DNA of 64,000 bases from Candidatus Saccharimonadota bacterium (lineage in GTDB: Bacteria > Patescibacteriota > Saccharimonadia > Saccharimonadales > JACDBH01), in the NCBI GenBank assembly GCA_013694995.1, contig JACDBH010000006.1, forward strand, positions 21,435 to 85,434. Direction: 5' to 3'. A program made the position numbers and the translations under genes. Below the pieces are notes generated by a model. The model saw only the letters and a program-made list of their open reading frames with translations, searched no databases and had not been told where the DNA came from. Within the stretch, counting starts at the first letter, position 1. Every line of letters starts with the position of its first letter. Positions 4,900 to 50,247 of the stretch are shown here, in pieces.

Positions 4900-4998
4900 T
4901 ATTGAAAATTCTAAATTTTAAGAAATCAACTCATTACCACTATCGTGGTTATGGATTTTAAAACTTGTTCCCATAACTCTCACAACTAAAACCCCTGC

Positions 4999-5634: not shown

Positions 5635-5896
5635 TAGATTAACATAGCTGTAATGTATTTAACATAAGTTATGGCACTAAAAGGCCAGTGGATTAGCCAC
5701 CGGCTCAAACCTGCTAATTATATAGATAGATATTCTTGCCAGAATTATTTATTATTTATGTAACTTCTTTATCTGGTCTTTGCCGCCAAAATGTAGTTTC
5801 ATGCTGTTCCCTCTTTAGTCCCTACTGTTTACGCTTACAAACTCGCATAAATTATAAGTAAAATAACAAAACATAAGCACTAGATCCAAATAACTT

Positions 5897-20880: not shown

Positions 20881-20955
20881 TGGTAGCGGGGCTAGGACTC
20901 GAACCTAGGACCTCTTGGTTATGAGCCAAGCGAGCTGCCGCTGCTCCACCCCGCG
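20881..20955 (-). tRNA. initiator tRNA-fMet (anticodon CAT), CCA encoded
   Basis: The reverse complement is CGCGGGGTGGAGCAGCGGCAGCTCGCTTGGCTCATAACCAAGAGGTCCTAGGTTCGAGTCCTAGCCCCGCTACCA. It has a C1:U72 mismatch and A11:U24. The 5' half is nearly identical to E. coli tRNA-fMet. Only two of the three G-C pairs in the anticodon stem are present. Confidence 0.85.
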
Positions 20956-24272: not shown

Positions 24273-26673
24273 GACGTTTGCGACTCATATACTGATAGGC
24301 AATTAGGCTGAATGGAATCGGCAGCCAAAAAGTTGCCAACCGGTAGAGTACAACTACTGACAAGGCTTCTGGCTTGGCTGTACCTAGTCCTAGCATGGCA
24401 CTAACCATGGCGATTTCAAGTGGCCCCAGCCCACCGGGCGTCGGCACCACGCTTTTAGCGATGACGGCGGAGGCATACACCAGCACCGCTTCGGCAAATC
24501 CTAGGTTTAGTCCAAAAGCTTTAAAACAAGCGTACAAACATACTACATAAGCCAGCGAAAACGCTAATGCTGATGCACAGGCCAATGCTACTTCAAAAGG
24601 CGAGTTGGTAAATTCCCGGATACTGGTTGCAAAACTAGATACCGCCGATACGACTTTTCTTTTTATTTTTTTATTCATGGCAAGTATAAAGATGGCTACT
24701 AGCAGCAATATTACAGCAATAACCGCCTGTCTGAGAGTTATATTGATAGCTATAACCGATGAAATACTCTCACCTTTGAAGAGCAGGAAAATACTGAGCG
24801 GCACAATGAACATCGCAAAACCAATAACATTGCCGGCAGCCAATATAGCAGCGGAATCCGCCCGATCGTTGCCTGCGCGGTAAAGGTAGCGAGCATTCAG
24901 ACTGGCGCTGCCGACCCCACCAGGAATGATTTTACTCATAAACGAAGCCGCCAACTGGGCAATAGTAGTTTGGATTACCTGCAAAGGCACGCTGGAGAGA
25001 ATTACGAAGACAATGGCCGCAAGAATGTAGGTCACTGCTGAGGAAATTAAAATCGGCACCAGCCAAGCGGCGTTTAATGAGGATAATGAACCTAAGGCTC
25101 CACGGAACAAATTGAACTGCGGGATTATAACGTACAATAGTACGCCGACAAGTACGACGTTAAAGACTTTACGCCTGTTAATACGGATAATATCCGCATC
25201 ATCAAGGTCTTCTTCTATGGCCAGGCGGTCTTTTATTTCCGTCTTCAAATCCTCCAGGAGCGATTTGTGGGATTTAAGGCTTTTCGCGGTTGCACCGCTA
25301 AAGACTTCTCGTTTTAGGTAAGGCAGCACCCGGGTCATCCGTTCCGGGTCAACCACTTCCATAGCAGCGTCCACTGTTCGCTCGACACCGACCACTAATG
25401 ACATCGACATTAATAGCTCAGCAATGTCCATATGTTGACGTTGTTTTCGCGGCGATACTTCGGCAAAGCCGAAATCAATTATCCAGGCTTGTCCCTGTTT
25501 GTCTATCATAAGATTAGCCGCACGCAGATCGCGGTGGGCCATATTGGACTCATGCATGAGGTTGACCTGGCTCCAGGCGTCGACCAGGCTTTTTTGCAGT
25601 AGTTTGCCGTGACTGGATAGCGAAGTAGCCTCAATTTTTTCCTGAATCAGCATCCATGACGAACGGACCTTAACTAAATCAACAATAACAGGAACTCTGA
25701 CACCGGCATTGCGCGCCCACAAAGTCGCGAGCGATTCCATTTCTATGTTGCGCCGGCTGCTGATAAACGGTTCTTCGGCCTGCAAGTTTTTAAAACGGAA
25801 AAACCTATAGGTCTTAAATAGCCAGTCGGCAGCATGCTCCTGGACGCCAAAAATCTTAGCAAAATATTTCTGGCCCTCAAGACCGGTCAAAAAATACGGC
25901 CGTGATCCCCTGGCATCGACATCAGCCAGTTGGATGTGCCTCATTTTATAGCCCTTTTTCCGGAGCGCTGTCTTAATCTGCCTAATAGTCAGAGACTGGA
26001 CAGATACGCCAAACAACAGACAGACTGTTGCGCCGAGTAATGCACCAAGCGCCCAGCCGCCAATAACGTCCAGTGGAAAATGCGCGCCCAAATACATACG
26101 GCTGAAACCGACGGCAAAAACTGCCAGCAGCAAATATTTGCGGTATGCCCGGTCTAATTGGAAGTACAGCACAGTTACGCAAGCTGCCACGAAAGTCGAA
26201 TGCCCTGACGGGAAGCCGTAACCGCCGAACTTTTCATCGCCGAACAGGCGTAAGCTATCCAGCAGCTCTTCCGGCCGGCCGCGTGCCACCAGCGTCTTCA
26301 TAAGTCGGGCTATGTTCCAGGCAAATATACCTGTGCCGGCAACGGTTAAAGCTGCCCGGCGGTTGATGAAAAACCAGGCAATGCCAACCCATAAGAATAA
26401 TGCCCCGACACCACCTAGCTGGGTGATAGCATACATCGTACTATCCAAGAATGTCGGCAAGTTATTAACAGCATCGAATAGCGGCCGCTCGAGGCTGTCA
26501 AATAATCCAGCGTCTAGAGCTTGGAGCGTACTGATAATTAATACGGCCAAAGCAAAAATAAATACGAATACATAGCGCGTGTCGCGTGTCTGGTTAGCAA
26601 AATACTTCTTGAGCCTTCCTAATTTTTTAGAAGTGCTCCTAAAAAGCTTCTTCAGTGCACTAGTAACTGTCAT
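24265..26673 (-). CDS. triple-domain membrane protein: PAP2 lipid phosphatase + protein-kinase-like domain + LPG-synthase-TM/flippase-like domain
   Basis: PAP2 motifs KTLVARGRP, PSGHS, SRMYLGAHFPLDV. Kinase-like HRDLRAANLMI and IIDFGFAE. The C-terminal ~290 aa is polytopic with the IPGGVGS/PTPGGLGPLE motifs typical of UPF0104/LPG_synthase_TM. Confidence 0.75.
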   Translation of the reverse strand: MTVTSALKKLFRSTSKKLGRLKKYFANQTRDTRYVFVFIFALAVLIISTLQALDAGLFDSLERPLFDAVNNLPTFLDSTMYAITQLGGVGALFLWVGIAWFFINRRAALTVAGTGIFAWNIARLMKTLVARGRPEELLDSLRLFGDEKFGGYGFPSGHSTFVAACVTVLYFQLDRAYRKYLLLAVFAVGFSRMYLGAHFPLDVIGGWALGALLGATVCLLFGVSVQSLTIRQIKTALRKKGYKMRHIQLADVDARGSRPYFLTGLEGQKYFAKIFGVQEHAADWLFKTYRFFRFKNLQAEEPFISSRRNIEMESLATLWARNAGVRVPVIVDLVKVRSSWMLIQEKIEATSLSSHGKLLQKSLVDAWSQVNLMHESNMAHRDLRAANLMIDKQGQAWIIDFGFAEVSPRKQRQHMDIAELLMSMSLVVGVERTVDAAMEVVDPERMTRVLPYLKREVFSGATAKSLKSHKSLLEDLKTEIKDRLAIEEDLDDADIIRINRRKVFNVVLVGVLLYVIIPQFNLFRGALGSLSSLNAAWLVPILISSAVTYILAAIVFVILSSVPLQVIQTTIAQLAASFMSKIIPGGVGSASLNARYLYRAGNDRADSAAILAAGNVIGFAMFIVPLSIFLLFKGESISSVIAINITLRQAVIAVILLLVAIFILAMNKKIKRKVVSAVSSFATSIREFTNSPFEVALACASALAFSLAYVVCLYACFKAFGLNLGFAEAVLVYASAVIAKSVVPTPGGLGPLEIAMVSAMLGLGTAKPEALSVVVLYRLATFWLPIPFSLIAYQYMSRKRLI

Positions 26674-26705: not shown

Positions 26706-27449
26706 CTAATTTATCAGACGCCGCTCTAAGTTAGCAACCGGATCATACCACCCCTGTTCCAGTACATAAGCTTGCAGCTTTTTATCTAGGCCAAAGATAA
26801 CCATGAGCCCAACGACAATAAATAATACGCCAATTACCCGCTTAAACCAGCTTTTTGGGTTGCTAAGACGACGAAGATGGGATGTAAAGGCCTGGCCAAT
26901 ATATGCAATCGATAGCAGCGTCGCGCTCATGCCGACAGCGTACGCCACCAGATAAATAAATCCTTGGATAAATGAGGCCGGCAGAACTGTGGCAACAATA
27001 AAGGCATAGGTTGGGCTACAGCTAGAGAATACCGGCCCCAGTGCCGCCCCAATCAGGACAGCTCCTGCCAAGCCTTTTTGTTTGTAGGCCCTACTTAATA
27101 CTCTATTGGAGCCGGTAAATAAGCCAGATCGGGCCGACAACACTTCCCAGCCGTGAGGCCAAACAAAATAAATGCCAAGCCCCAACACTATAAACCCCGA
27201 TATAATCTGCCAGACAATTTGCGGCACGCCAATTAGCGCCGTCGTGGCTTTTATTAACAGCGTAAAAACTATCACTGACGCTGCTAAAGATAGGGCGATG
27301 ACAAAAGGCCGTAGCCACTGTCGTTCGGGCTTGTCCGAATCATCTCGCAGTAGCGAGCCGCCAATGATAACTGGCAGCAGAGGCAATATACACGGAGCCG
27401 CCACGGTCAAAGCACCAGCCACAAACGCTAGGATTAGTAGCGCCGTCAT
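26706..27449 (-). CDS. ccdA: cytochrome c biogenesis CcdA/DsbD-like thiol-disulfide transporter
   Basis: A Cys in TM1 (APCILPLLPV) and a second Cys (FSSCSPT). 6 TM. Confidence 0.75.
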   Translation of the reverse strand: MTALLILAFVAGALTVAAPCILPLLPVIIGGSLLRDDSDKPERQWLRPFVIALSLAASVIVFTLLIKATTALIGVPQIVWQIISGFIVLGLGIYFVWPHGWEVLSARSGLFTGSNRVLSRAYKQKGLAGAVLIGAALGPVFSSCSPTYAFIVATVLPASFIQGFIYLVAYAVGMSATLLSIAYIGQAFTSHLRRLSNPKSWFKRVIGVLFIVVGLMVIFGLDKKLQAYVLEQGWYDPVANLERRLIN

Positions 27450-27934
27450 CGGCTAAAGATACCGGCTTCAACCGCCTTCAGTGTCGGGTCGTTATAGGCA
27501 ACATGTTTACTTACCTCCTCGCCCTCATCGTTTACATGCACAATCGTCGTCTGGATAGTCACGCCATATTTTTTTCGAAGCGCTTGGTTGCTGTCGTAGT
27601 CGACTTTAATTATCGTCATTCCGTCGGGCACGCCTTTGGCTTCAATATCGTCTTCCAGGTCCCGGCACTGCGGGCACCATGGTGCGTGGAAAAATAATAG
27701 CTTGGTGCCTTGGGTCTCGGCAACAATACCCTCCCGGTAATCAACATACTGGCCCTTGCGGGTTGAACTGTCACTAGGCGCTACCGTCGACGACCCATCG
27801 GATGAAGTGTTTAGCGTAAAGCTTTCTTGCATGCCATTACGGGCCGTTTCGCCGCCGCTGCCAATTAAATAAGCTATTCCGCCCATAACGGCAACCAATA
27901 TAACTGCAATGATTATTAATGTTTTTTTACCCAT
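27446..27934 (-). CDS. membrane-anchored thioredoxin-like protein (TlpA/ResA-like)
   Basis: N-terminal TM and the WCPQC active site (FHAPWCPQCRDL). Overlaps ccdA by 4 nt. Confidence 0.8.
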   Translation of the reverse strand: MGKKTLIIIAVILVAVMGGIAYLIGSGGETARNGMQESFTLNTSSDGSSTVAPSDSSTRKGQYVDYREGIVAETQGTKLLFFHAPWCPQCRDLEDDIEAKGVPDGMTIIKVDYDSNQALRKKYGVTIQTTIVHVNDEGEEVSKHVAYNDPTLKAVEAGIFSR

Positions 27935-30844: not shown

Positions 30845-32251
30845 ATGACTGAGAGAAATAACAGCCCTAACGTTTATGGTATTGAAACCGAATATACCTG
30901 CATGCTCACACTCCCCAATGATGTTGTTCACGAACTGGTTGGGAGCTGCCACTCGGTTGACGCGCGGATTGGGCTTTATGAAGCGCCGTCTGATAAAGGC
31001 AGCTCCGCAATACAAAGTCTAAGTATATCTCGCGCCCTAGAAAAAGTGGGAATATTCAGGAACTCAACCGGCATGCTCTCAAATGGTGGTAGGTTATACA
31101 TTGATCCAAGTGGCCCGGAGTACGCGACCCCCGAGACAACCACTGCCAAAGAAACCGTTTATCGATCGTTTGACGGTGATAAGATTTTACTGGGAATTTT
31201 TGACCGATTTCGCAACGACGGGATTCTCAAAGACTTCCAAGTTAACCGGCGGATCGTGGATCATAACCGTACTTCAAGAGGCATCCACTTGAATACTTTG
31301 ACTTCTTTAAACAACAGAGGACCCGATGACCTTGTGGCTAATTGGATTGCCACACTCAATGTCGTTAAGGGTGCAATGTTCGGATCGGGGGGATTGTTAG
31401 TTGACGATAAGGGTAAGACTGCCTACCACCATTCACCTAGGCTTTCTATAACAACCGATACGACCGCTAACTACAACAAGTATAAGCAAAGACCCCTGGT
31501 TAGAGGCCCGTTTAAAGGTGATGGTAATCAGTTTGCGCGGATAGAAACCGTAACTAGTGACGCCCTTAACTTTGGGTGGCCACTGCGCGCAAGCCTGGTT
31601 GCAACCAATGCTTTTGTCGGGATATTAGAGCTGGGATATGGTGATAAGTGCCCTCGCCTTAGGAATCCAGTTAGTTCCGCGCATTTTGTAGGCAGGCTTG
31701 GTAGTGAAGGTAAGGTAGAAATTATAAAAGGCGAAAGCACTGCCACTGCCCGCCCATTAGATATAATGCGTCAAATTTGTGAAATAGTTTTAGAAGTTGA
31801 TGATAAAGAAAAGTATTTAGATAAAGAGTCGGATCAGGTAATCGGCGAGATAATCGATACGGCAGACAAAATGAGCACCGATATTTATAGCGTTGCCGAC
31901 CAAGTAGAATCCGTGGGCAGATTGGTCGCAATGCAGAGGAAAATGGATAAAGCCAAGATCGCACTAGATTCAGAAAGAATGTGTCGGTTTGATTATGCGT
32001 GGGACTGGTTAAGGGGCGGCATAGCCGAGACTTTAAGAGATAAGAGGTTAGCTGGCTGGCAGGGCTTTGGGGACACTCCGTCTGTGGCGACTGTACGCAG
32101 GAGGCTAACTACCCCTCCTCAAGACACACGAGCTAAAGTCAGGGGCGAAAATATAAAATTGAGTCATGGTACTAATGATTCCACATGGGATCAGATCGAT
32201 TTTGGTACCCACCAGCAATACGTTCATCCGTTAGATTCCCACAGATCTTAG
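30845..32251 (+). CDS. Pup ligase/deamidase (PafA/Dop) family carboxylate-amine ligase homolog, divergent
   Basis: N-terminal VYGIETEYTCM (the GxETE[FY] signature) and NGGRLYIDPSGPEYATPE (compare NGARLY.D..HPEY[AS]TPE). The GCHENY-type motif is degenerate (RGIHLNT). 468 aa. Confidence 0.7.
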   Translation: MTERNNSPNVYGIETEYTCMLTLPNDVVHELVGSCHSVDARIGLYEAPSDKGSSAIQSLSISRALEKVGIFRNSTGMLSNGGRLYIDPSGPEYATPETTTAKETVYRSFDGDKILLGIFDRFRNDGILKDFQVNRRIVDHNRTSRGIHLNTLTSLNNRGPDDLVANWIATLNVVKGAMFGSGGLLVDDKGKTAYHHSPRLSITTDTTANYNKYKQRPLVRGPFKGDGNQFARIETVTSDALNFGWPLRASLVATNAFVGILELGYGDKCPRLRNPVSSAHFVGRLGSEGKVEIIKGESTATARPLDIMRQICEIVLEVDDKEKYLDKESDQVIGEIIDTADKMSTDIYSVADQVESVGRLVAMQRKMDKAKIALDSERMCRFDYAWDWLRGGIAETLRDKRLAGWQGFGDTPSVATVRRRLTTPPQDTRAKVRGENIKLSHGTNDSTWDQIDFGTHQQYVHPLDSHRS

Positions 32252-32320: not shown

Positions 32321-32683
32321 TTATTCGTGAGAGTCTTGCGTGACATCGGCTTCATAACCCCAATCACTTTGCCACTGTTTCATTTGGGCGATTTCTTGTT
32401 CTTGTGCGGTAATGATATTGCGTGACAATTCTTTGATTTCTTCATGCTTTGCCTGCCCTTCGGCTAATTTGGCCATTCCTACCGCGCCTTCGTGGTGGGC
32501 AATCATAGAGTTAATAAATTCTTCATCAAATTCATCGCCGCGCTTATTAGTTAAAGACTCTGTCATGGACTGCATGCTATCGCTGCTAGCAACCGGTTTT
32601 TCGATTGTGGTTGCAACAATTGAGACTAGTAGACCGCCTGCCATAAAGCTGATGATTCCGATAAGCAAAGACTTGGTATTCAT
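32321..32683 (-). CDS. DUF305 family protein (copper-stress associated), membrane-anchored
   Basis: N-terminal TM. FDEEFINSMIAHHEGAVGMAKL and ITAQEQEIAQMKQW match DUF305 repeats. Confidence 0.75.
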   Translation of the reverse strand: MNTKSLLIGIISFMAGGLLVSIVATTIEKPVASSDSMQSMTESLTNKRGDEFDEEFINSMIAHHEGAVGMAKLAEGQAKHEEIKELSRNIITAQEQEIAQMKQWQSDWGYEADVTQDSHE

Positions 32684-32704
32684 TTCTGTTTCCTCCTGAT
32701 TAAG

Positions 32705-32989
32705 TTAACGTGACAGCATCCGGCTGACGGCCGTTACTAGTTCTTCGGCTTTGGCTTCAGTTCCCTTTGGCCCGATGTTGTCGTTAGCAAGACAATGCCG
32801 GGCGTGTTCGCCGAGCAACTCCAAGGCGACTTTATCAAGGGCAGCCTGGGCAGCGTTGATTTGGGTCAGAATATCCACGCAGTATTTATCTTCCACGACC
32901 ATCCGAGTTACGCCGCGCACTTGGCCTTCTACCCGGTTTAACCGCTTCACTATCTGCTCTTTGTTCTTGGTGTAACCGTATGTGTTCAT
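32705..32989 (-). CDS. csoR: CsoR/RcnR family metal-sensing transcriptional repressor
   Basis: RLNRVEGQVRGVTRMVVEDKYCVDILTQINAAQAALDKVALELLGEHARHCL contains the Cys...His-x3-Cys Cu(I) ligand pattern. Confidence 0.85.
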   Translation of the reverse strand: MNTYGYTKNKEQIVKRLNRVEGQVRGVTRMVVEDKYCVDILTQINAAQAALDKVALELLGEHARHCLANDNIGPKGTEAKAEELVTAVSRMLSR

Positions 32990-33474
32990 GCTGTTTCCTT
33001 ATGAGTGTGGTGATGGGCTTCAGCTTCGTCAAGCTCATGCATTTCATGCATTAGTGCGTGGCCTTTGCCGCGTTTTAGCAAATATAAGTTTACTGGGTAC
33101 GAGGCAAAGTACGCTGCCGTTAACGCTAAGGCCATCCCTAGCCAAAAGATAGGGTTAACCAGCCCAGCTTCCATGGCGCCGGGTATAACTGCCATAACGG
33201 TATTATCGACCAGCTCCATAGTCGCAATTGATAAAGTATCGGCCGCAAACACTAGGCTTAGAGCTGCCCCCAAAGCTATGCCCGATTTAACCAGCGGCAA
33301 AGCCGACAGCGAATAACCAAAGATAAATGACAACCCAACTGCCAGAGCAATTGTAGGCAGTGTGCTAAGTCCTATGGCCGTGCCGATAATTAGACCCAGT
33401 ATTTCGCCGATAGCACACCCTGTCAGACAGTGGAGAGTAGCGCTTTTTGCTAAAGATTGGATGTTATTATGCAT
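32986..33474 (-). CDS. DUF4396 membrane protein, first gene of the CsoR operon
   Basis: LHCLTGCAIGEILG motif. 4 TM. His-rich C-terminus (EAEAHHHTH). Overlaps csoR by 4 nt. Confidence 0.7.
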   Translation of the reverse strand: MHNNIQSLAKSATLHCLTGCAIGEILGLIIGTAIGLSTLPTIALAVGLSFIFGYSLSALPLVKSGIALGAALSLVFAADTLSIATMELVDNTVMAVIPGAMEAGLVNPIFWLGMALALTAAYFASYPVNLYLLKRGKGHALMHEMHELDEAEAHHHTHKETA

Positions 33475-33486
33475 GTTAATTCTCCT

Positions 33487-33526
33487 TATACCCCCCTAGG
33501 GTATACAAAAACAAAAATCGTGTCAA
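33487..33526 (-). promoter_or_regulatory. promoter of the copper operon with an overlapping CsoR-type operator
   Basis: The minus strand reads TTGACA (33526-33521), 17 nt, then TACCCT (33503-33498). The inverted repeat TATACCC-N5-GGGTATA (33487-33505) covers the -10. SD GGAGAA follows. Confidence 0.6.
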
Positions 33527-33558
33527 TAAAAAAGAGTCCCTGAATCAAAGACTCTTTT
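33524..33558 (-). terminator. rho-independent terminator after the 41-aa ORF
   Basis: AAAAGAGTC - 11 nt - GACTCTTTT forms a 9-bp stem. The minus strand continues TTTTTATTG. Confidence 0.6.
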
Positions 33559-33575
33559 GTTTAGTAAACTTTTAT
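33557..33575 (+). repeat. 19-bp direct repeat, copy A (TTGTTTAGTAAACTTTTAT)
   Basis: Identical to 34646..34664. Both copies sit between a minus-strand stop codon and its terminator hairpin. The core GTTTA-G-TAAAC is palindromic. Confidence 0.7.
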
Positions 33576-33590
33576 CTTATTAGGTTGGCT

Positions 33591-33716
33591 TTATTCCTCG
33601 TTAAAAGACCTGTTTTCAGACTGTTTTATCAATTGCTCCAGGCGGGCTTGGTCTTCGCTTTTCTTTACATAAGCCGTGGTTTCAATCTTGTTATATTTTC
33701 TTTTTTTGTCAGCCAT
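33591..33716 (-). CDS. small highly charged protein (41 aa), below the ORF-track cutoff
   Basis: MADKKRKYNKIETTAYVKKSEDQARLEQLIKQSENRSFNEE. Strong SD AAGGAG lies 7 nt upstream. A terminator lies downstream. Confidence 0.5.
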   Translation of the reverse strand: MADKKRKYNKIETTAYVKKSEDQARLEQLIKQSENRSFNEE

Positions 33717-33862
33717 GGTAAAGCTCCTTTTACTTACTACTCTTTTACCATAAACTTTTAATCATTATCAAACAGTAAGGAATCTAACATATAGCAATCC
33801 CAAAACAAAATGACGCTTTTTGGCCGCGACCAAAATGAATGGTTTCTTATAATGATTACAAT

Positions 33863-33934
33863 TTAGAAAACGAACATTATAACTGCTATCAAACCTATCA
33901 CCGCAAGAATGGTAATAATTGTGCTGCGACCCAT
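33863..33934 (-). CDS. 23-aa hydrophobic mini-ORF (type I toxin-like or small membrane peptide)
   Basis: MGRSTIITILAVIGLIAVIMFVF. SD-like GAAAGG lies 8 nt upstream. A TACAAT -10-like box lies about 30 nt upstream. It sits just downstream of the terminator at 34011-34046. Confidence 0.35.
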   Translation of the reverse strand: MGRSTIITILAVIGLIAVIMFVF

Positions 33935-34010
33935 ATAGTTGGCCTTTCGTTATTAATTTCACTCCCAATTGTAGAAAAATTAAAAGCTAATAACCGTAAA
34001 ATAGCTTACA

Positions 34011-34046
34011 TTAAAAAACCTTGCGGAGGTCAGACCTCCGCAAGGT
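34011..34046 (-). terminator. strong rho-independent terminator (minus strand)
   Basis: ACCTTGCGGAGG-TCTGA-CCTCCGCAAGGT forms a 12-bp stem, followed on the minus strand by TTTTTTAA. Confidence 0.6.
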
Positions 34047-34618
34047 ACTACGGTTAGTAAGTATATGAATACTTAAATAAAATAGAACCATATGTCATCA
34101 GTTAGGTCATTTCGCGCATTCCTTCGGAATGCCGAGCGAGTATCTTTTGGACCGCCAAAAGATACCAAAAACTCTCTGGCTGCGTTTTTTCTTGATAGAG
34201 CCACCAGTCATAGCAAACAACAGGGCTTCGGAACTCGCTAGCGCTCAAACAGCCTAGCCCTATTTTGTTGTTTGTATGACGTGGCTCTTCAGGAAAAAGC
34301 CGATGCCAAGTAGCCCCCATGGATACGGCCCAACTGGCCGATATTTTATACGTGCTCGCTCCAAGGAGCGAGCTTCTGCTTTAAACCCCAGCATCTGAAA
34401 AGTCCGGTGAATATTGTGGCAAAAGGAGCGAATCAAGCAAAAGTGTGCTCGAATGCCTACTTAAAGTTAAAGTATTCGAGCCGCTTGCCGTTCTTTTGCG
34501 CGCTCTCTTTTGCTACAATTTTCAGCCGTGACTTTTCAGCCGCTGGTCAGTTTTTTGGCTTCTTTTTTGCTGAACCAAAAAAGAAGCGACTTGGTTCTTG
34601 GTCGCAAGAACAAATAAA
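34047..34618 (-). ncRNA. candidate structured non-coding RNA region, unclassified (strand tentative)
   Basis: About 570 nt between two minus-strand terminators, with no credible ORF. Stable helices: 34116-34132 (7 bp), 34140-34165 (11 bp), 34214-34274 (9+3 bp enclosing), 34354-34373 (8-9 bp), 34388-34546 (rod), 34558-34587 (12 bp). Confidence 0.3.
34388..34546. repeat. 159-nt imperfect long hairpin (rod-like inverted repeat)
   Basis: Nested complementary pairs: CCAGC/GCTGG, CTGAAAAGTC-CGG/CCG-T-GACTTTTCAG, ATTGTGGCAAAAGGAGCG/CGCTCTCTTTTGCTACAAT, GCAAAAG/CTTTTGC, CTCGAAT/ATTCGAG. Confidence 0.7.
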
Positions 34619-34646
34619 ATAGAGCCCCTGTACTGTGGGGCTCTAT
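34611..34646 (-). terminator. rho-independent terminator after 34667..34975
   Basis: ATAGAGCCCC - 8 nt - GGGGCTCTAT forms a 10-bp stem. The minus strand continues TTTATTTG. Confidence 0.6.
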
Positions 34647-34664
34647 TGTTTAGTAAACTTTTAT
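34646..34664 (+). repeat. 19-bp direct repeat, copy B (TTGTTTAGTAAACTTTTAT)
   Basis: Identical to 33557..33575, 1089 bp away, in the same position relative to a stop codon and terminator. Confidence 0.7.
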
Positions 34665-34666
34665 AT

Positions 34667-34975
34667 TTAGAAAATGCTACGTAGCAAGTTTGCGATTGGA
34701 TTGCCCCTAGCTTTGCCTTGGCTTGCAATGAAGCTTACACAATCACCTTGATTCTTGAAGGTTGGGTTATTAAATGTCTTCCAACCATCCTTTTTACACT
34801 GATCTTTGTTAGTGGGAGTAGTAAGCGATTCCTGTAGTTCAAAATCGAATGTTGTGCTATTGAACGTTACAGAGTCTAGGTAAGTAATATAGCTAGGATT
34901 GTACGTGCCCTGAAATACTCCATACTCTGTCACAACACCTTGGGGTGCTTGCACTTTTGCATCGGTAAGGTTCAC
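34667..34975 (-). CDS. C-terminal part of a secreted protein (possibly split from 34972..35520)
   Basis: GTG start overlapping the upstream stop. Contains the Cys-motif DQCKKDGWKTF...FKNQGDCVSF. Its frame stays open upstream of the GTG to about codon -14. Confidence 0.5.
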   Translation of the reverse strand: MNLTDAKVQAPQGVVTEYGVFQGTYNPSYITYLDSVTFNSTTFDFELQESLTTPTNKDQCKKDGWKTFNNPTFKNQGDCVSFIASQGKARGNPIANLLRSIF

Positions 34976-35520
34976 TGTAGGAGGGCCAGCGATGTTACAT
35001 GTAACGCGCCGAATGGACTAGTACACCAAAGCATACCTGTAGCAACGTCACCGGTTTGCCAAATATTACGCTCCACAGGCGCATTGTTGGGCGATCCATC
35101 GCTCCAATATGGCTCATAAACTAAATATGTACTATCGGATGTAGTTAGATTGCCATCTATATCAATCTTAAGGTAAAAGCTTAATGCCCCAGCGTCCACA
35201 TTTGCTGTTTCTACTTTTGATACATACGACACATTATTTAAAGCCCCTAAAGCAAGTGGGGTAGACAATGCATAGGATAGTGCAGCGTTTGATTCGTTTG
35301 TTTCGTTTGTTGTTAGTCTAGCAGAACCCACTCCCATAGGCGCAGTGGCGTCAGCGACAAAATTTACTACGCCCCCTGCACCGACATCAATTACCCAACC
35401 ATTTGGATTTGTTGGCGTGACAACTGTAGTTGCAGCACTTGCCATTGGCGCGAAGGCCAAAATTGGTAGAGCGAGCAAAGCCGATAAACCAGCTGCCAGC
35501 CTTTTTATTGTTTTTATCAT
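34972..35520 (-). CDS. secreted protein, N-terminal part (signal peptide)
   Basis: Signal peptide MIKTIKRLAAGLSALLALPILAFAPMASA. SD AGGAGA. Ends within the palindromic TTACATGTAA region next to the start of the following ORF. Confidence 0.6.
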   Translation of the reverse strand: MIKTIKRLAAGLSALLALPILAFAPMASAATTVVTPTNPNGWVIDVGAGGVVNFVADATAPMGVGSARLTTNETNESNAALSYALSTPLALGALNNVSYVSKVETANVDAGALSFYLKIDIDGNLTTSDSTYLVYEPYWSDGSPNNAPVERNIWQTGDVATGMLWCTSPFGALHVTSLALLQ

Positions 35521-35840
35521 GCATTCTCCTAATTAATTTTTTGACAAAAAAAATAAACTGCCGGGGTGCGACAGTTTATAGACTACTTACCTACTGTTAC
35601 GTGTACTTGCGATAGGTACAAGAACATAAGCTGGTTTACGTGAAAGGCTAACCATGTATCTTTTCAATAAGTTTCTTAACATAAACCCCCTTATATTCTT
35701 AATAGTCATAACCAGTATAAGTCCGTCCTAAAACCAATACTACCGCCATCACCTTAGTGCGATGTTAATAACACATCAATAACACTTTAGGAGAATTGTC
35801 GAATTTCTTACACAACAACAGCTTTGGGAGAGGTTTGGGG

Positions 35841-36005
35841 TCACAAAGAGCGGCGGTATTTGCGTATAACGATGGCGCCCAAAATGACGGCCAACAGCAA
35901 TATACCAAACACCAACGTAAAGTCCACCGGGTTTTCTTTCTTAAGGGACAGGGTCTCGCCCTCGCTGGTCTGGATTTCGTAACCGGCTGTTTGTTCTTCT
36001 GTCAT
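35841..36005 (-). CDS. possible 54-aa tail-anchored membrane protein
   Basis: Manual translation: MTEEQTAGYEIQTSEGETLSLKKENPVDFTLVFGILLLAVILGAIVIRKYRRSL. The antisense track ORF 35796..36008 looks less protein-like. No clear SD. Confidence 0.4.
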   Translation of the reverse strand: MTEEQTAGYEIQTSEGETLSLKKENPVDFTLVFGILLLAVILGAIVIRKYRRSL

Positions 36006-36034
36006 TAATGTCAGTATACTCGTCTAATTAACAG

Positions 36035-36847
36035 ATGGGTAATACTTATGCTTTAATGGGCACCACCTATAAATTACTTGCTTTCTTAAAAATAGAGGAC
36101 TATGTTGGAATTATGAATAATTATCCCGGGGTAGAACCTGGGAAGTTTCGATCCGCTGCAATCGAGAGCGGAGATCACATAGAACAGCTACCGGAAGCTG
36201 TTTATAATGAATTACTGGAAAATCCCAGGACTGTTTCTCCGGTACGCGAACAACTTGCCGTTTCTATACGAGCTGACGCCGTACGGATAAAAGATCGTCT
36301 TGTAAACTACAATATCCAGCCTAATGCGGTGCTTGTCCTGAGTGAAACCCAAACTGTTACCCGTTCCAAGAAGTTAATAAAGCGTTTAATGGATATACCG
36401 GACGTCGAAATAAAAACTGAAACGGTAAGAGCGTGGGTTGTAAATGCACGAGCTAAGCGCGAAGCAGTACAGACAAATAACTTTTGGGATTATGGGGCTC
36501 TGCCTCAGATAAAAATTAGTCATAACGGCTTAGCAATCGATGAAAATGGACTAATCCATTATTATACGGATAAGCCGCATATAATTAGGCAGGATCAATC
36601 TGCTAATGGAGAACCGAGGCAACAGTATTTTTCTCAGGTACCTGCATCAACATCAGAATTACAAACCCCCTTACGATCACTACAGCTCGCAAGCGATTAC
36701 AATCTTATAGGTCTGCACGCTATTAACTCCTCTATCCCGGATATGTTTTTTCAGCCTGCCTATATGGAATGGCACCGAGATACAGCAAGATTGTTTAACT
36801 CTATCCCGTTAAGCGCTGGGCATACTAGACCTCAAGACGCGGCGTAA
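36035..36847 (+). CDS. hypothetical protein
   Basis: 270-aa ORF (an internal ATG at MNNYPG is possible). No motif recognised. Its 3' end overlaps a convergent gene by 23 nt. Confidence 0.5.
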   Translation: MGNTYALMGTTYKLLAFLKIEDYVGIMNNYPGVEPGKFRSAAIESGDHIEQLPEAVYNELLENPRTVSPVREQLAVSIRADAVRIKDRLVNYNIQPNAVLVLSETQTVTRSKKLIKRLMDIPDVEIKTETVRAWVVNARAKREAVQTNNFWDYGALPQIKISHNGLAIDENGLIHYYTDKPHIIRQDQSANGEPRQQYFSQVPASTSELQTPLRSLQLASDYNLIGLHAINSSIPDMFFQPAYMEWHRDTARLFNSIPLSAGHTRPQDAA

Positions 36848-37319
36848 CACCCGGCTCGTAGACAATAACTGTAACAAACAGGTCGGGATTGTAGTGGTCG
36901 TGCATGTAAAAGACGCCGGTTTGATTAAACTGGACGCGCCAAGCCTCGTCGGCCTCGAAATCGCCAGATTGGTATTCGCCTTCGTGTTGGTGCGATACAT
37001 CGGCGTGGGCTCCGTGGCCATCATCTTCTTGGCCGTGCTTGCCCTCACCCAGTGACATGTTGTGCACCCTGCCATCGGCTGAATTAAACTGGACGAATTC
37101 GCCTAATTTAACACTGATGTTATCGGGCTTTATGCCAGTTTCGGTGAGTGCAAGGCAAACATTGGCATTGCAGTTCTGGTTACTTACTTGCTTGTTCTGG
37201 TTGTTACTTAGCGCTTGGACACCGGCAAATCCAGTGCCAAGGGCCATTAGTGCCACCAGGCCGAAGACTAAAAAACTGTTTTTGCTGGCCTTTTTAACTG
37301 AATCTTTTATACGGCTCAT
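36825..37319 (-). CDS. secreted His-rich cupredoxin-like protein (no Cys ligand)
   Basis: Signal/TM at the N-terminus. Beta-rich. His cluster KHGQEDDGHGAHADVSHQHEGE and YMHDHYNP. Directly follows the cupredoxin gene. Confidence 0.5.
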   Translation of the reverse strand: MSRIKDSVKKASKNSFLVFGLVALMALGTGFAGVQALSNNQNKQVSNQNCNANVCLALTETGIKPDNISVKLGEFVQFNSADGRVHNMSLGEGKHGQEDDGHGAHADVSHQHEGEYQSGDFEADEAWRVQFNQTGVFYMHDHYNPDLFVTVIVYEPGVTPRLEV

Positions 37320-37724
37320 TTATTCGGTAACCTCGACTACGCCCTTCATGTACGGGTGTGGAGAGCAGTTATAGCTGTAGCTACCTACTGTATTGAAGGT
37401 AACACTGTATGTTTCGCCTTTAGCAAGCAGTGGGCCTTCTTTGAAATCGTCTGTGGCATCTTCGGGAGTTACGTTGTGCTTGGCATCATCGTTATTGGTC
37501 CAGGTAACAGTAGTGCCCTTTTTAACTGAAATGTTGGCTTGCTTGAAGGCAAAGTCTTCGATTGATACTGCGTTCGGGGCTGTTGCTGTCTCTGTATCTG
37601 CTGTCTCGCTGCTGTTCATGTTCATTGTGCTCATGTCATCGCTGCCTTTATCTTTTTTGAGAAGACTTGAGATGCCAACCACAGCTATGACAGCGATGAG
37701 TGCAATAATAATAAATTTTTTCAT
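37320..37724 (-). CDS. type-1 copper (plastocyanin/amicyanin-like) cupredoxin, membrane-anchored
   Basis: N-terminal TM. VTWTNNDDAKHNV (His ligand) and YSYNCSPHPYMKG (Cys-x2-His-x2-Met ligands). Confidence 0.8.
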   Translation of the reverse strand: MKKFIIIALIAVIAVVGISSLLKKDKGSDDMSTMNMNSSETADTETATAPNAVSIEDFAFKQANISVKKGTTVTWTNNDDAKHNVTPEDATDDFKEGPLLAKGETYSVTFNTVGSYSYNCSPHPYMKGVVEVTE

Positions 37725-39160: not shown

Positions 39161-39613
39161 CTACCCCTCCCGGCGGAAGAGAAACTCTAGCCAAGCGTTG
39201 AAGTTGCGCTCGTACCACGGGCCGGTGTCCTCGAGACCGGTACTTTGGCCTCTGACCTCCGGAAGCTCAACGTCGACAGTATGTGACATAGCAACGGTTT
39301 TGGGTACAATTAAAAGCTTTTCGCCAGGGCTAGCCTTATTGTATTGGCGGCGCACCACCAGCTCGATATATTGGTCGGTCTCTAAGTAAAGGTTTTTGAG
39401 CGCTAAGTTAGAATTCTCCAGCTGACGGACCTGATTGCGCTGTTGCATGGCCGACATCTGCTTTTGCAGGTCATAATTAGTCTGGACCACCTTAATGCCA
39501 CTCCAGGTAACTAGCAGCGCCATAATCGTAAATACAATCAGACCCAAAGTACGGACGTCAGTGAGGGTGTAATACAGGGAAGATTGTTGTAGTTTTTTTA
39601 TTTTTGATAACAT
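39161..39613 (-). CDS. septum formation initiator family protein (FtsB/DivIC-like)
   Basis: N-terminal TM, a coiled coil (NYDLQKQMSAMQQRNQVRQLENSNLALKN), then TDQYIELVVRRQYNKASPGEKLLIV, typical of DivIC/FtsB. Confidence 0.65.
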   Translation of the reverse strand: MLSKIKKLQQSSLYYTLTDVRTLGLIVFTIMALLVTWSGIKVVQTNYDLQKQMSAMQQRNQVRQLENSNLALKNLYLETDQYIELVVRRQYNKASPGEKLLIVPKTVAMSHTVDVELPEVRGQSTGLEDTGPWYERNFNAWLEFLFRREG

Positions 39614-39628
39614 TTTGTAATGCTAGTA

Positions 39629-39643
39629 TAGCAAACTTTGCTA
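39629..39643. promoter_or_regulatory. perfect palindrome in the ftsB-like/wbl divergent region
   Basis: TAGCAAA-C-TTTGCTA, flanked by GTATAG direct repeats (39626-39631, 39648-39653). Confidence 0.3.
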
Positions 39644-39705
39644 CTCTGTATAGTAAGAGTAAGTGGAGGAGTCTTAATATTTATTTAATCGGAGATTTGT
39701 AATTA

Positions 39706-40182
39706 ATGGGAATTAGAGCAACCAGCGGCCACGAATTTGGTGAACCCACCCCGCATGTAATGCGCGCGGCGGCATTTGCGCAGATAAACCAGTTTGTCCT
39801 AAATTCGGGACGCAAAGAGCAAGTTACTGAGATAATCCCGCTCGAAACCGAGCCAGAAATTGATATTGACCGACCCCCTATTAATACCGCATCGTCAACG
39901 GCACTACCGCCACTCAATTGGGACTCTGAAGCAATACAAAAACTGCGTAACTGTATTGATAAGCCACGTGGGCTATTTTTCCCCGAACCTGGCCCTAACC
40001 TCAAGGATCGTCAAAAGCTGGCTAAAGCCATCTGCGCGGAGTGTATCATTAACGACCTTTGCCTTGATGAAGCCCTGAAGAACAGTCAAAATGTTGGCAT
40101 TTGGGGCGGTACAACAAAAGGCGAACGCAAAAAGATTATCAATGCTCGCAGCCAAGCCGCCCAGGAAACTGAGGTGGCATGA
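39706..40182 (+). CDS. WhiB-like (Wbl) Fe-S transcription factor paralog 1, long N-terminal extension
   Basis: Four Cys: RNC...AKAICAECIINDLCLDEAL...VGIWGGTTKGERKKI (C-x2-C-x5-C, GIWGG turn, basic tail). SD GGAG upstream. Confidence 0.8.
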   Translation: MGIRATSGHEFGEPTPHVMRAAAFAQINQFVLNSGRKEQVTEIIPLETEPEIDIDRPPINTASSTALPPLNWDSEAIQKLRNCIDKPRGLFFPEPGPNLKDRQKLAKAICAECIINDLCLDEALKNSQNVGIWGGTTKGERKKIINARSQAAQETEVA

Positions 40183-40198
40183 ATATTAGGTATATCAA

Positions 40199-40711
40199 AT
40201 GAGCATTGAGACAGTGAACGATTGGCAGAGCAAGGAACCGACTGCTGAGGAGCTTCAACAAGTCGAATTACAAGCAATACTCGAAGCCAGGATAAAACAA
40301 ATGGATCCCGGAGACTTGAGGTATTGGCACAGCGCAATTTTGGATAGAGATTTCGAGGCAGACATTGAATTTGAAACTGAGGATCGTGTTAAGGAAGCCG
40401 CTGTATATTCAGATAATCCAATACCTACTGGAAAAACCACTGACTCCTACTGGAGGAGTAAGGGTTCTTGCCTAGGAGCAAACCTAAAATTATTTTATCC
40501 CGATAAAACCGGCAGATACGCTAGAGCAAATAACTACAACATAGTGTTACAAGCAAAAGCAATCTGCGAGACATGCGTGGTTCGTGTTGAATGCCTGGAA
40601 AATGCGCTAGAAAACAACGAGCAGTACGGCATATGGGGCGGGAAGACTGAAGATGAGCGTGACGAGCTTCTTAGGCGACAAGGTCATTCTGAACGAAACG
40701 TAAGTGCATAA
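40199..40711 (+). CDS. WhiB-like (Wbl) paralog 2
   Basis: GSCLG...AKAICETCVVRVECLENALENNEQYGIWGGKTEDERDELLRRQ. The ~100-aa acidic N-terminal extension is unrelated to that of paralog 1. Confidence 0.8.
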   Translation: MSIETVNDWQSKEPTAEELQQVELQAILEARIKQMDPGDLRYWHSAILDRDFEADIEFETEDRVKEAAVYSDNPIPTGKTTDSYWRSKGSCLGANLKLFYPDKTGRYARANNYNIVLQAKAICETCVVRVECLENALENNEQYGIWGGKTEDERDELLRRQGHSERNVSA

Positions 40712-40730
40712 ATAGGTATAATATGGCTTA

Positions 40731-41120
40731 ATGAGCCCAAACCGGATCCCAAGAGGTGATTATTACCTAGAAACCAACCCAAATGGCGAAATAAAGCCCG
40801 ATAGTTCTCAGGTGTCGATAGGCAACAGCGACAGGCGTTTAGGAGAATTTGCTTTAGGGTTAGGGCTTTGGGCTTTCGAGGAGTGGCGGGCTTATGCGGC
40901 CTGCGCGGGGCTGAATCCTGATATATTTTTCCCTACGACAGATTATGACATAGAAGTAGCAAAAGCAATTTGTGCCGACTGTGGCGTTAGTCAAGAGTGC
41001 CTCAACTATTCCCAAGAACGCCCAGAGGTATACGGCATATGGGGGGGTAAAAATAAAGCTGAACGTCGGGCCTTACGGCACAGAGAGTCCGGCCATCCAC
41101 CTGAGAAATTGGTTGTATAA
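40731..41120 (+). CDS. WhiB-like (Wbl) paralog 3
   Basis: AACAGLNPDIFFP...AKAICADCGVSQECLNYSQERPEVYGIWGGKNKAERRAL. TATAAT (40717-40722) lies 8 nt before the ATG. Confidence 0.8.
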   Translation: MSPNRIPRGDYYLETNPNGEIKPDSSQVSIGNSDRRLGEFALGLGLWAFEEWRAYAACAGLNPDIFFPTTDYDIEVAKAICADCGVSQECLNYSQERPEVYGIWGGKNKAERRALRHRESGHPPEKLVV

Positions 41121-41129
41121 TATATCCTA

Positions 41130-41453
41130 ATGAGGAAAGAAACCCCATCTTCAATCGAAGCAGATCCGCCGCTTCATCCAGCCCAGGCAGCAGAACTTGC
41201 AAATGCCAGAGAGGCCTTTGAACTAAATAAAACTGATGAGTTGTGGAAGGAATTTGGATACTGCGCAGGCAAGCAAAAAGAGTTTATGAAAAACAGTATA
41301 GCCGCAACAGCTATGTGCGATGTCTGTTTGGTCAAAGTTGAATGTCTGGAATTCGCAATTGAGAATAATCAGAATTTTTATATTTGGGGCGGCAAAACAC
41401 CTTCAGAACGCAAACGCCTGATCAAACGGCGTAACCAGGCCCCCAAGAAGTAA
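41130..41453 (+). CDS. WhiB-like (Wbl) paralog 4
   Basis: GYCAG...ATAMCDVCLVKVECLEFAIENNQNFYIWGGKTPSERKRLIKRR. TATAAT (41116-41121) lies 8 nt before the ATG. Confidence 0.8.
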   Translation: MRKETPSSIEADPPLHPAQAAELANAREAFELNKTDELWKEFGYCAGKQKEFMKNSIAATAMCDVCLVKVECLEFAIENNQNFYIWGGKTPSERKRLIKRRNQAPKK

Positions 41454-41589
41454 ACTTCTGTCCATACCAGACCTAATCTGCTATAATTTCCCTGTTAAAA
41501 ACAGCTTTTAGCCAAAATACCAAACCAGTTCGCTTGTCGAATGTTTTTGGATTTTGAGAGGAGATGGCTTGTAGGGTCTGTAGTTTTAA

Positions 41590-41706: not shown

Positions 41707-41782
41707 GGGGGCGTAGCTCAGTGGTTAGAGCAGAGGACTCATAATCCTTTGGCCGTTGGTTCAAGTCCAACCGCCCCCACCA
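41707..41782 (+). tRNA. tRNA with CAT anticodon, probably tRNA-Ile2 (lysidine-modified), CCA encoded
   Basis: GGGGGCG/TAGCTCAGTGGTTAGAGCA/GAGGA-CTCATAA-TCCTT/TGGCC/GTTGGTTCAAGTCCAAC/CGCCCCC-ACCA. The D arm, anticodon loop, variable loop and T arm closely resemble E. coli ileX. The Ile2-versus-Met assignment is inferred only. Confidence 0.8.
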
Positions 41783-49797: not shown

Positions 49798-50247
49798 CTA
49801 CTTGTTACGAGGATTTTTATAGGCAGATGGGTGGCGTGGGCGGGCATCAGCGGCACGGCGAGCGCGCTCTGCAGCATATAAATCTGCGCTCAAGACTTCA
49901 TGCTCCCGTCGACGTGATGGATTGCTCCGTTTAGGATCACCAAAGTTGGCATTATAATCAACTACAGCATCGGTAGACGCCTCGCCTACTTCAAACCTAG
50001 CTTGGCCGGCTTTTGCTCGACTGCCAAGTTCAGCTCGTTGTGGGATAATCTCAGGCTCTAAATGGGTAACTGCGACTTCGCCTATCGTGCCATATTCATC
50101 ATGAATTAATCTTAGTGCCCGCTCATTCGCCTTTTTTTGCACAAAGCTTAACTCTGTATCATGGGGTATATCATCAAGGTGCACGACATCACCATCCTCA
50201 TTGACGGGGACCTTGCTTGGATCAAGATAAAGGGGATTTTCAGCCAT
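49798..50247 (-). CDS. hypothetical protein with a basic C-terminal tail
   Basis: 149-aa ORF. Arg-rich C-terminus (RRREHEV...ERARRAADARPRHPSAYKNPRNK). Confidence 0.5.
   Translation of the reverse strand: MAENPLYLDPSKVPVNEDGDVVHLDDIPHDTELSFVQKKANERALRLIHDEYGTIGEVAVTHLEPEIIPQRAELGSRAKAGQARFEVGEASTDAVVDYNANFGDPKRSNPSRRREHEVLSADLYAAERARRAADARPRHPSAYKNPRNK

Follow-up and report, generated by a model that had tools for sequence, protein, structure and literature searches.

The genes considered here are best compared with the class II WhiB-like (Wbl) regulators of Actinobacteria, namely WhiB of Streptomyces, WhiB2/WhmD of Mycobacterium and WhcD of Corynebacterium, which have the same four-cysteine module, GIWGG turn and sigma-contacting aromatic residues. 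The turn motif of the Wbl family is G[I/V]W[G/A]G, and F17, F18 and W60 of WhiB1 were found by mutagenesis to drive binding to region 4 of the sigma factor (PMC10245118), where a His-Pro-Ser motif forms the sigma side of Wbl binding (PMC10243135). Class II proteins activate cell-division genes together with WhiA (PDB 8DY7/8DY9; PMC10243135, PMC6282962); they work with WhiA at GACAC-containing promoters, and their DNA-binding features are a loop, K37-K45, and the contact residues R67, S75, R77, E78 and R80 (PMC10243135). There are 7 Wbl paralogues in M. tuberculosis and 14 in S. coelicolor, including copies on plasmid SCP1 (PMC6282962), and the family has been stated to be exclusive or confined to Actinobacteria (PMC6282962, PMC10243135).

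Here we describe four wbl genes, wbl1 to wbl4, that stand head to tail on the plus strand of a 64-kb stretch of contig JACDBH010000006.1 (the window) from a Candidatus Saccharibacteria bacterium, between a divIC/ftsB-like septum-formation-initiator gene and a tRNA-Met gene. Like the actinobacterial Wbl sets, in which the several paralogues of a genome are 30-50% identical and are believed to have different partners, cluster sensitivities and modes of DNA binding, the window encodes several paralogues. However, the actinobacterial proteins fall into five conserved classes and have been described as separate loci, whereas the window holds four unclassifiable copies head to tail within 1.75 kb and in another phylum. 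At orthologous loci the same slot normally holds a single class II gene, and the array is probably the outcome of an old, locus-specific expansion, with accelerated divergence, of genuine Wbl genes. Public (NCBI automatic) annotation already names these genes WhiB family regulators, so the novelty lies in their context and arrangement and not in recognition of the domain.

The four open reading frames (ORFs) have the lengths (Table 1) and the gaps of 16, 19 and 9 nt given in an earlier note on this DNA, which was made from the sequence alone and described them as Wbl paralogues. The hidden Markov model (HMM) search proposed in that note placed all four above the gathering score of the WhiB family, PF02467 (23.6 bits). 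Each protein has exactly four cysteine residues in the pattern C-Xn-C-X2-C-X5-C, giving 16 ligands in all: C83, C110, C113 and C119 in Wbl1, C91, C123, C126 and C132 in Wbl2, C58, C81, C84 and C90 in Wbl3, and C45, C63, C66 and C72 in Wbl4. The loss of iron-sulfur ligands upon careful alignment, which the note had named as a ground for refutation, is therefore not seen. Trp-Gly-Gly and the following Glu-Arg are invariant in the alignment of the four proteins. The details of the described module hold in part. The C-x2-C-x5-C spacing is as stated, but the distance from the first cysteine to the CxxC pair, put at about 25-35 residues, is 27, 32, 23 and 18 residues in Wbl1 to Wbl4, and the value for Wbl4 lies below the main range of 21-38 in 267 other Wbl proteins, which include lone outliers at 12 and 45. 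The turn, given as G(I/Y)WGG, is GIWGG in Wbl1, Wbl2 and Wbl3; Wbl4 has YIWGG, so that the first glycine is replaced and the second position does not vary. Basic tails are present in Wbl1, Wbl3 and Wbl4, strongly so in the last (isoelectric point (pI) 12), but the tail of Wbl2 is acidic to neutral (pI 5.6, with 5 Lys and Arg versus 6 Asp and Glu). An HMM built from the four modules found no further Wbl module in the 64 kb. The G+C content of the array is 0.465 compared with 0.446 for the window, and its composition is like that of its surroundings.

Structures were modelled with AlphaFold2 for Wbl2 and Wbl4. The Wbl2 model has a mean predicted local distance difference test (pLDDT) value of 78.9, with residues 11-40 at 85-92, and aligns with solved WhiB3, WhiB1 and WhiB chains with target-normalised template modelling scores (TM-scores) of 0.72-0.89 (0.83-0.89 for its module on WhiB3 and WhiB1). 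The Wbl4 model (pLDDT 76) gave target-normalised TM-scores of 0.64-0.70 against WhiB and WhiB1, with a root-mean-square deviation of 1.7-1.9 Å from S. venezuelae WhiB. By every sequence and predicted-fold criterion that could be applied, the products of the four ORFs belong to the Wbl family.

A check of synteny had been proposed in the earlier note, and the setting of the array was examined at 12 loci, comprising the window and 11 orthologous loci found through relatives of its DivIC protein. The DivIC proteins of these 11 loci are 55-74% identical to the window copy, and identities among all loci are 52-74%. The slot between divIC and tRNA-Met or its neighbours contains four wbl genes in the window only, two in L185 and L190, one in L178, L181, L183, L186, L187, L188 and L189, and none in L179 and L184, where divIC has tRNA-Met immediately upstream. 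Recurrent neighbours of divIC are a cupredoxin gene, a Dus gene, an ABC transporter, a 304-aa alpha/beta hydrolase and tRNA-Met. The closest relative by DivIC (72-74%), L178, has the order divIC, one wbl, tRNA-Met, and both of its flanks align with those of the window, including the divIC promoter region, the TGcTATAAT site after wbl, and the tRNA. In L189, the gene after the single wbl encodes the same 304-aa hydrolase that the window has. Since both flanks are orthologous with those of L178, the four-gene array sits exactly at the single-gene position, which supports an origin of the array at this locus. The pairing of wbl with divIC in 10 of the 12 loci of this Saccharibacteria clade is at odds with the idea in the earlier note that wbl genes came to lie beside divIC by a one-off acquisition. 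Because the slot normally holds one class II gene, its ancestral state would be a conserved whiB-divIC pair; judged by the copy numbers at these loci, the slot is prone to duplication, and this window is the extreme case.

The usual single gene of the slot is, on sequence comparison, of the class II WhiB/WhiB2 type. The protein of L186 matches S. venezuelae WhiB (8DY9/8DY7) with 105.7 bits and 58% identity over 81 residues, compared with 64 bits for WhiB1 and lower scores for WhiB3, WhiB4 and WhiB7. It retains the minor-groove loop as RGASTREAK (KGGSTREAK in WhiB) together with S75, R77, E78 and R80. The class II loop and contacts are present in L186, L187, L189 and L190, and the loop of L188 differs slightly. 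The canonical proteins of these relatives are mostly 50-77% identical to one another (43-77% if the most divergent, that of L181, is counted), whereas the modules of Wbl1 to Wbl4 are only 29-47% identical to them at similar DivIC distances. Among themselves the four are 28-40% identical over the HMM-aligned module (32-48% in local BLAST alignments), so that they are about as far from one another as from the Wbl proteins of actinobacteria and phages. While the slot gene of the relatives is clearly class II and likewise adjoins a division gene, the window copies differ from the described class II proteins in their divergence, in N-terminal extensions of 36-82 residues and in belonging to an organism that is not an actinobacterium.

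The residues by which class II proteins bind DNA have largely changed in the array. Compared with WhiB, the loop has 4-9 extra residues in Wbl1 and Wbl2; in Wbl3 it is acidic, and in Wbl4 it is deleted. None of the copies retains R67, S75 or R77, and E78 alone is present in every one. The R80 position is kept in Wbl3 only and is Lys in Wbl1 and Wbl4 and Asp in Wbl2, which has Asp at the R77 position as well. The sigma-contacting aromatic residues are largely kept, with FF, FY, FF and FM after the first cysteine of Wbl1, Wbl2, Wbl3 and Wbl4, respectively, and the Trp of WGG in all. The equivalent of W3 of WhiB1 is Trp in Wbl2, Wbl3 and Wbl4 and Ile in Wbl1 (six residues before the first cysteine), so that Wbl1, like WhiB7, has no cluster-shielding Trp. 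Among proteins of solved structure, S. venezuelae WhiB is the best match of Wbl1 (38.3 bits), Wbl3 (52.9 bits) and Wbl4, with a lead over other classes of only 3-9 bits, and WhiB3 is the best match of Wbl2. Judged by their DNA-contact residues, Wbl1 to Wbl4 are not class II members: the DNA-binding loop and the basic contacts, on which the role of class II WhiB as an activator of division depends, are found in none of them.

The modules are preceded by 74, 82, 49 and 36 residues in Wbl1, Wbl2, Wbl3 and Wbl4, respectively. These N-terminal regions are acidic (pI 4.2-5.0) and have no detectable similarity to one another, in agreement with their description in the earlier note as mutually unrelated and mostly acidic. 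They are very likely translated, since their 241 codons are free of stops, which at this base composition would occur by chance with a probability of about 1e-6. Wbl2 is the one copy whose N-terminus was searched for relatives. An exhaustive HMMER search with Wbl2 of 1.84 billion representative proteins returned only itself below 1e-30; the next matches scored at most 74.7 bits and cover the module only, so that this N-terminus is without known relatives. AlphaFold2 predicted with high confidence that it forms a helical hairpin (residues 16-51), which has no match in the PDB. Two long Saccharibacteria Wbl proteins encoded at other loci (L183, positions 5323-5868, 181 aa; L185, positions 4874-5449, 191 aa) have a common N-terminal motif, DYDP[FM][VI]AMA[SG]IR, which points to a separate conserved family of N-terminal extensions. 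The motif is absent from Wbl1 to Wbl4, and no similarity was found between the N-termini of the window proteins and these two long proteins.

Divergence of this degree could also mean that the extra copies are decaying duplicates without a function of their own, and Wbl4 is atypical (short first cysteine spacing, YIWGG, FM for FF) and Wbl1 has lost a conserved Trp. However, all four frames are intact through the stop-free N-terminal codons, all 16 cysteine ligands are retained, as are WGG and ER, the genes remain closely spaced with their start-site signals, and the models of Wbl2 and Wbl4 fold as Wbl proteins. Decay is on this evidence highly improbable. The low identity of the modules bears on the age of the copies. 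The earlier note had proposed acquisition followed by duplication in situ, with the copies locally amplified. Local expansion at the slot is upheld by the conserved flanks, but not a recent amplification, because the modules are only 28-40% identical and the copies are therefore old.

Three observations are weak signs that the copies descend from one another or from a common gene. A Lys residue follows WGG in Wbl2, Wbl3, Wbl4 and some Saccharibacteria relatives, compared with 2 of 118 other Wbl proteins. The regions around the starts of wbl3 and wbl4 are identical at 17 of 20 nt, and outside the -10 box and ATG at 8 of 11 (P about 0.002). Lastly, L185 and L190 each have a second, divergent wbl copy in this slot. 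The G+C content of the array, which matches that of the window, is a further hint of a common origin.

Several results weigh against an expansion at the locus, or against what is proposed below for its products. A phylogeny had been recommended in the earlier note as a means of separating duplication from independent acquisition. The neighbour-joining tree that was built (131 sequences, 89 module columns, 200 bootstraps) is unresolved and did not separate the two, and the four copies were never monophyletic in the 200 bootstraps. The best tree places Wbl1, Wbl2, Wbl4 and the divergent copy of L185 beside the canonical Saccharibacteria group with 24% support, and Wbl3 groups elsewhere, weakly (32%), with two proteins of unknown origin. 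Some of the copies may, on these sequences, have independent origins. None of the four is clearly orthologous to the canonical gene, and no close relative of any of them was found in the collections searched, so that conservation of the array cannot be demonstrated. Neither a sigma factor gene nor whiA lies within the window, and cluster binding, sigma binding, promoter use and an effect on division are all inferred. Further searches, with Wbl3 and with a mixed profile, yielded only remote Wbl proteins, most of them unnamed, and none that is orthologous to a gene of the array. Scans of viral and metagenome sequences with a profile of the four modules gave best matches of 40-51% identity, with a few segments of about 40 residues reaching 63%, and no related array.

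The position of Wbl3 in the tree is also what would be expected if some or all of the four genes had been imported separately from actinobacteria or phages beside tRNA-Met, displacing the native class II whiB. The identities are compatible with such xenologous replacement, since the four copies are no more similar to each other (28-40%) than to actinobacterial Wbl proteins (35-47% over the same columns) or to phage Wbl proteins (up to about 44-51% by tblastn). Moreover, the slot adjoins a tRNA gene, a common integration target, and cultured Saccharibacteria live on Actinobacteria (PMC12369343). Against import, there is no integrase, phage or transposon gene nearby, the array does not stand out from the window in composition, the PHROG scores do not exceed those of Pfam, and no donor-like sequence of more than 54% identity was found in any collection searched. 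The second divergent copies in the slot of L185 and L190 fit a duplication-prone locus, and the rare Lys after WGG is common to three copies and some Saccharibacteria relatives. We therefore consider separate import unlikely, although among the alternatives to local expansion it is the chief one. Actinophage Wbl proteins have the same module, with up to about 44% identity and scores of 47-77 bits for the PHROG WhiB families; they are no closer to the window copies than cellular Wbl proteins, and there is no phage context around the array. An origin in a phage or other mobile element was rejected as the main explanation on the same two grounds, the lack of such genes nearby and PHROG scores no better than those of Pfam.

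Expansion within the slot gains some context from the arrangement of wbl genes elsewhere. Among 160 viral and metagenome loci picked by similarity to the window modules, 41 have adjacent wbl pairs on the same strand (21 of the 80 viral loci and 20 of the 80 from metagenomes), and the two copies in the divIC slot of L185 and L190 resemble such pairs. The statement in the earlier note that wbl genes usually occur as dispersed single genes thus does not always hold. The same note knew of no tandem arrangement of four, and none has come to light here: no sampled locus besides the window has more than two copies, among 171 others (160 chosen by Wbl similarity and 11 by DivIC). Two proteins, P0242 (177 aa) and P0256 (260 aa), contain two complete Wbl modules in tandem within one polypeptide.

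The argument that this is a wbl locus outside Actinobacteria depends on the taxonomy of the window, which the earlier note had described as not actinobacterial in appearance. The NCBI label of the window proteins is Candidatus Saccharibacteria bacterium, and the DivIC relatives from two other, independent assemblies bear the labels Candidatus Saccharibacteria (P0224) and Candidatus Saccharimonadales (P0391); no relative has an Actinobacteria label. A G+C content of 39-51% is further evidence for the assignment, and orthologous loci lie on contigs of 0.90 and 0.94 Mb with about 44% G+C, which fits the genomes of roughly 1 Mb in this group. These labels agree with the impression in the earlier note. 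Since the window has no rRNA or ribosomal protein marker, its taxonomy rests on the labels of independent submitters and on genome style. This leaves room for the contig, which belongs to a metagenome-assembled genome (MAG), being a mis-binned piece of a low-G+C actinobacterium with a small genome, in which several wbl genes would be expected, and three features of the window are indeed associated with actinobacteria: its Wbl genes, a Pup-ligase-family gene and the frequency of leaderless promoters. Such an error is nevertheless extremely improbable: the label is Saccharibacteria or Saccharimonadales, and never Actinobacteria, in three independent assemblies that have this DivIC family, orthologous loci have the contig sizes and G+C content given above, and no close actinobacterial homologue of any window Wbl protein was found in the searches. 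The Pup_ligase-family protein (468 aa) scores 75 bits for Dop and 62 bits for PafA, compared with cut-offs of 492 and 551, and the distance of its Dop score from the cut-off indicates that it is not the actinobacterial enzyme. A remote relative of an enzyme regarded as an actinobacterial hallmark is unexpected in such a genome.

Besides the window, 9 of the 11 related loci thus have Wbl genes in Saccharibacteria and Saccharimonadales assemblies, contrary to the view, also taken in the earlier note, that they are a hallmark of Actinobacteria and their phages. Because that view concerns distribution and not structure, the finding does not speak against membership of the family. A search of the literature for WhiB or Wbl in Saccharibacteria, Patescibacteria, the candidate phyla radiation (CPR) or TM7 found nothing relevant.

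The gene divergent from the array had been called FtsB/DivIC-like in the earlier note, and its relatives point the same way. Its product scores 28.5 bits against PF04977, just under the cut-off of 28.9, and has 225 relatives at E <= 0.001; nearly all of the 120 listed, with identities down to 51%, have a precomputed PF04977 assignment, and their source names are FtsB or septum formation initiator. PF04977 proteins are small and bitopic, and their N-terminal membrane helix leads into a coiled coil. By inspection, the window protein has a hydrophobic stretch, LGLIVFTIMALLVTWSGI, at residues 24-41, and then a Gln/Leu-rich segment. Upstream of the gene is an extended -10 element (TGn-TATAAT). Both in the window and in seven relatives (L178, L181, L183, L186, L187, L189 and L190) the divIC start is preceded, at a distance of 8-13 nt, by TTTGCTATAAT or TTTGCTATACT. 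The element also precedes the neighbouring 136-aa gene at 38745. Its closeness to the start codon implies that the divIC mRNA is leaderless or nearly so.

A perfect palindrome in the 92-nt region between divIC and wbl1 had attracted attention in the earlier note. It is present in this shared region, but it consists of the divIC extended -10 as its right arm and a mirror arm that is kept in L178 alone, as TAGCAAGGTTTGCTA. A palindrome of this kind is not rare in itself, since the 64 kb contain 32 that are perfect and have arms of 7 nt or more. It spans the position expected for the -35 element of the candidate wbl1 promoter, and it may be an operator common to both divergent promoters, although it is mostly explained by the divIC promoter; as a dedicated operator it was downgraded, one arm being a conserved promoter and the other kept in a single relative. 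The motif GACAC does not occur in the 92-nt region.

Start-site signals differ among the four wbl genes (Table 1). A candidate -10 box and a Shine-Dalgarno sequence precede wbl1, wbl2 has neither a clear Shine-Dalgarno sequence nor a well-placed -10 box, and TATAAT stands 8 nt before the ATG of both wbl3 and wbl4, where the earlier note had placed it. Its suggestion that these boxes mark internal promoters or leaderless mRNAs is plausible, because the layout fits a pattern seen throughout the window: a -10-like hexamer lies 5-13 nt before the start of 16 of the 71 window genes, compared with 4.9% of random positions (P = 3e-7). Leaderless mRNAs thus appear to be common in this Saccharibacterium, to judge from gene starts, and separate promoters for wbl3 and wbl4 are plausible. 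No terminator-like sites of good quality were found between the four genes on the plus strand. The copies probably do not form one simple operon. Further examples of the leaderless layout are at 24265-26673, 27446-27934, 38745, 41840 and 49798-50247, and an SD-like (Shine-Dalgarno-like) site was found in only 22 of the 71 genes.

Table 1. Positions of the genes and sequence elements discussed, numbered from the first nucleotide of the window
Feature	Position	Strand	Remarks
823-aa beta-helix and Big_7 surface protein	18098-20569		
802-aa protein, apparent domain fusion	24265-26673		
Pup_ligase-family protein	30845-32251		
Copper cluster	32321-37724		
divIC/ftsB-like septum-formation-initiator gene	39161-39613	-	150 aa; divergent from the array
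divIC extended -10	39625-39635	-	Reads TTTGCTATACT; ends 11 nt before the divIC ATG; also found in promoter scan
Palindrome TAGCAAA-C-TTTGCTA	39629-39643		Single occurrence in the window
Candidate wbl1 -10, TATAGT	39649-39654	+	Followed by a leader of ~45 nt; predicted from sequence
wbl1 Shine-Dalgarno, GGAG	39691-39694	+	11 nt before ATG; scored as SD-like site
wbl1	39706-40182	+	158 aa; PF02467 59.7 bits
wbl2	40199-40711	+	170 aa; PF02467 69.2 bits
TATAAT before wbl3	40717-40722	+	Candidate internal promoter, leaderless mRNA
wbl3	40731-41120	+	129 aa; PF02467 71.8 bits
TATAAT before wbl4	41116-41121	+	Overlaps wbl3 stop; candidate internal promoter, leaderless mRNA
wbl4	41130-41453	+	107 aa; PF02467 42.1 bits
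TGcTATAAT promoter-like site	41479-41487	+	After the array; aligns after the single wbl of L178 and L186; right border of the slot
tRNA-Met (CAT)	41707-41782	+	Right flank of the slot; ARAGORN and Rfam; follows the single wbl in L178 and L186
Other CAT-anticodon tRNA genes	1269-1345, 20881-20955		Three such genes in 64 kb with that at the slot

About 215 nt between the promoter-like site that ends the slot and tRNA-Met are unannotated and have no Rfam match; the same spacer in L186 contains a tRNA-like fragment. The copper cluster encodes DUF305/DUF4142 proteins, a CsoR-like repressor (PF02583), a DUF4396 protein and a cupredoxin, and the cupredoxin gene beside divIC is syntenic in L179, L184, L185, L186, L188 and L190. 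In the 802-aa protein, a PAP2-type phosphatase appears to be joined to a Bud32-like kinase domain and an MprF-like flippase domain. The best relatives of the 823-aa surface protein are from Parcubacteria, Kribbellaceae, Chitinophaga and Acidimicrobiales, with 45-54% identity, a patchy distribution that looks like horizontal transfer.

A mechanism for the four proteins can be proposed from solved actinobacterial complexes (PMC10243135, PMC10245118). Each Wbl protein would hold an O2- and NO-sensitive [4Fe-4S] cluster on its four cysteine residues, as in the family at large, and would use the FF pair after the first cysteine and the Trp of the GIWGG turn to dock on the primary sigma factor at its region 4. 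Docking would bury the cluster, and promoter use would be altered while the cluster is intact. The cluster of Wbl1 may be more exposed because the protein lacks the cluster-shielding Trp. The basic tails of Wbl3 and Wbl4, and to a lesser degree that of Wbl1, could make non-specific contacts to DNA upstream of the -35 element, and Wbl2, acidic at the DNA-contact positions and in its tail, might occupy sigma without DNA and so compete with the other copies. The different N-termini might recruit different partners or gate access. We propose that in this lineage the slot expanded to four genes, which diverged strongly, acquired unrelated acidic N-termini and lost the WhiB DNA-contact loop. By analogy, redox control of cell division is plausible, the link to division being suggested solely by the conserved gene neighbours and by what class II WhiB and WhiA do in Actinobacteria. 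A multi-channel redox/NO control module for division, as envisaged in the earlier note, would have to act without the DNA-binding loop and basic contacts of class II WhiB.

The combination in Wbl2 of retained sigma-contact aromatics with the loss of basic DNA-contact residues would also suit a protein directed at another cell. The diverged copies might be host-directed or dominant-negative mimics that titrate the sigma factor or a WhiA-type partner of an actinobacterial host. Mycobacteriophage TM4 WhiB, for instance, reportedly interferes with host WhiB2. Fast divergence and the relative-less N-terminus of Wbl2 are like those of proteins under conflict, and epibiotic life on Actinobacteria is documented for cultured relatives (PMC12369343). 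However, inspection of the four N-termini revealed neither a signal peptide nor a known secretion signal, and no secretion system genes are adjacent. No result speaks directly for export from the MAG's cells, and we regard the idea as very unlikely. Its fuller form, that an epibiont captured a WhiB-type division regulator of its host, kept one copy beside divIC and uses the extra copies to jam the sigma A/WhiA circuit of the host, is just as hard to credit. If true, the use of the copies as a weapon would explain the fast divergence, the N-termini without relatives and a Wbl2 that binds sigma and is blind to DNA. Expansion at the slot, followed by divergence of the copies within the cell's own regulation, is the reading that we prefer.

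Although WhiA is also common in bacteria other than Actinobacteria, to our knowledge no function has been established for it there. A class II WhiB-type gene as the conserved neighbour of divIC in a clade of Saccharibacteria provides a non-actinobacterial setting for studying the joint role of WhiB and WhiA, and it widens the known range of the Wbl family. As cultured members of the phylum live on Actinobacteria, it also raises the question of gene transfer between epibiont and host. The array itself is a compact natural experiment in the divergence of Wbl paralogues, in their N-termini, DNA-contact residues and cluster shielding. The conserved pairing of WhiB with divIC in Saccharibacteria is more interesting than the array.

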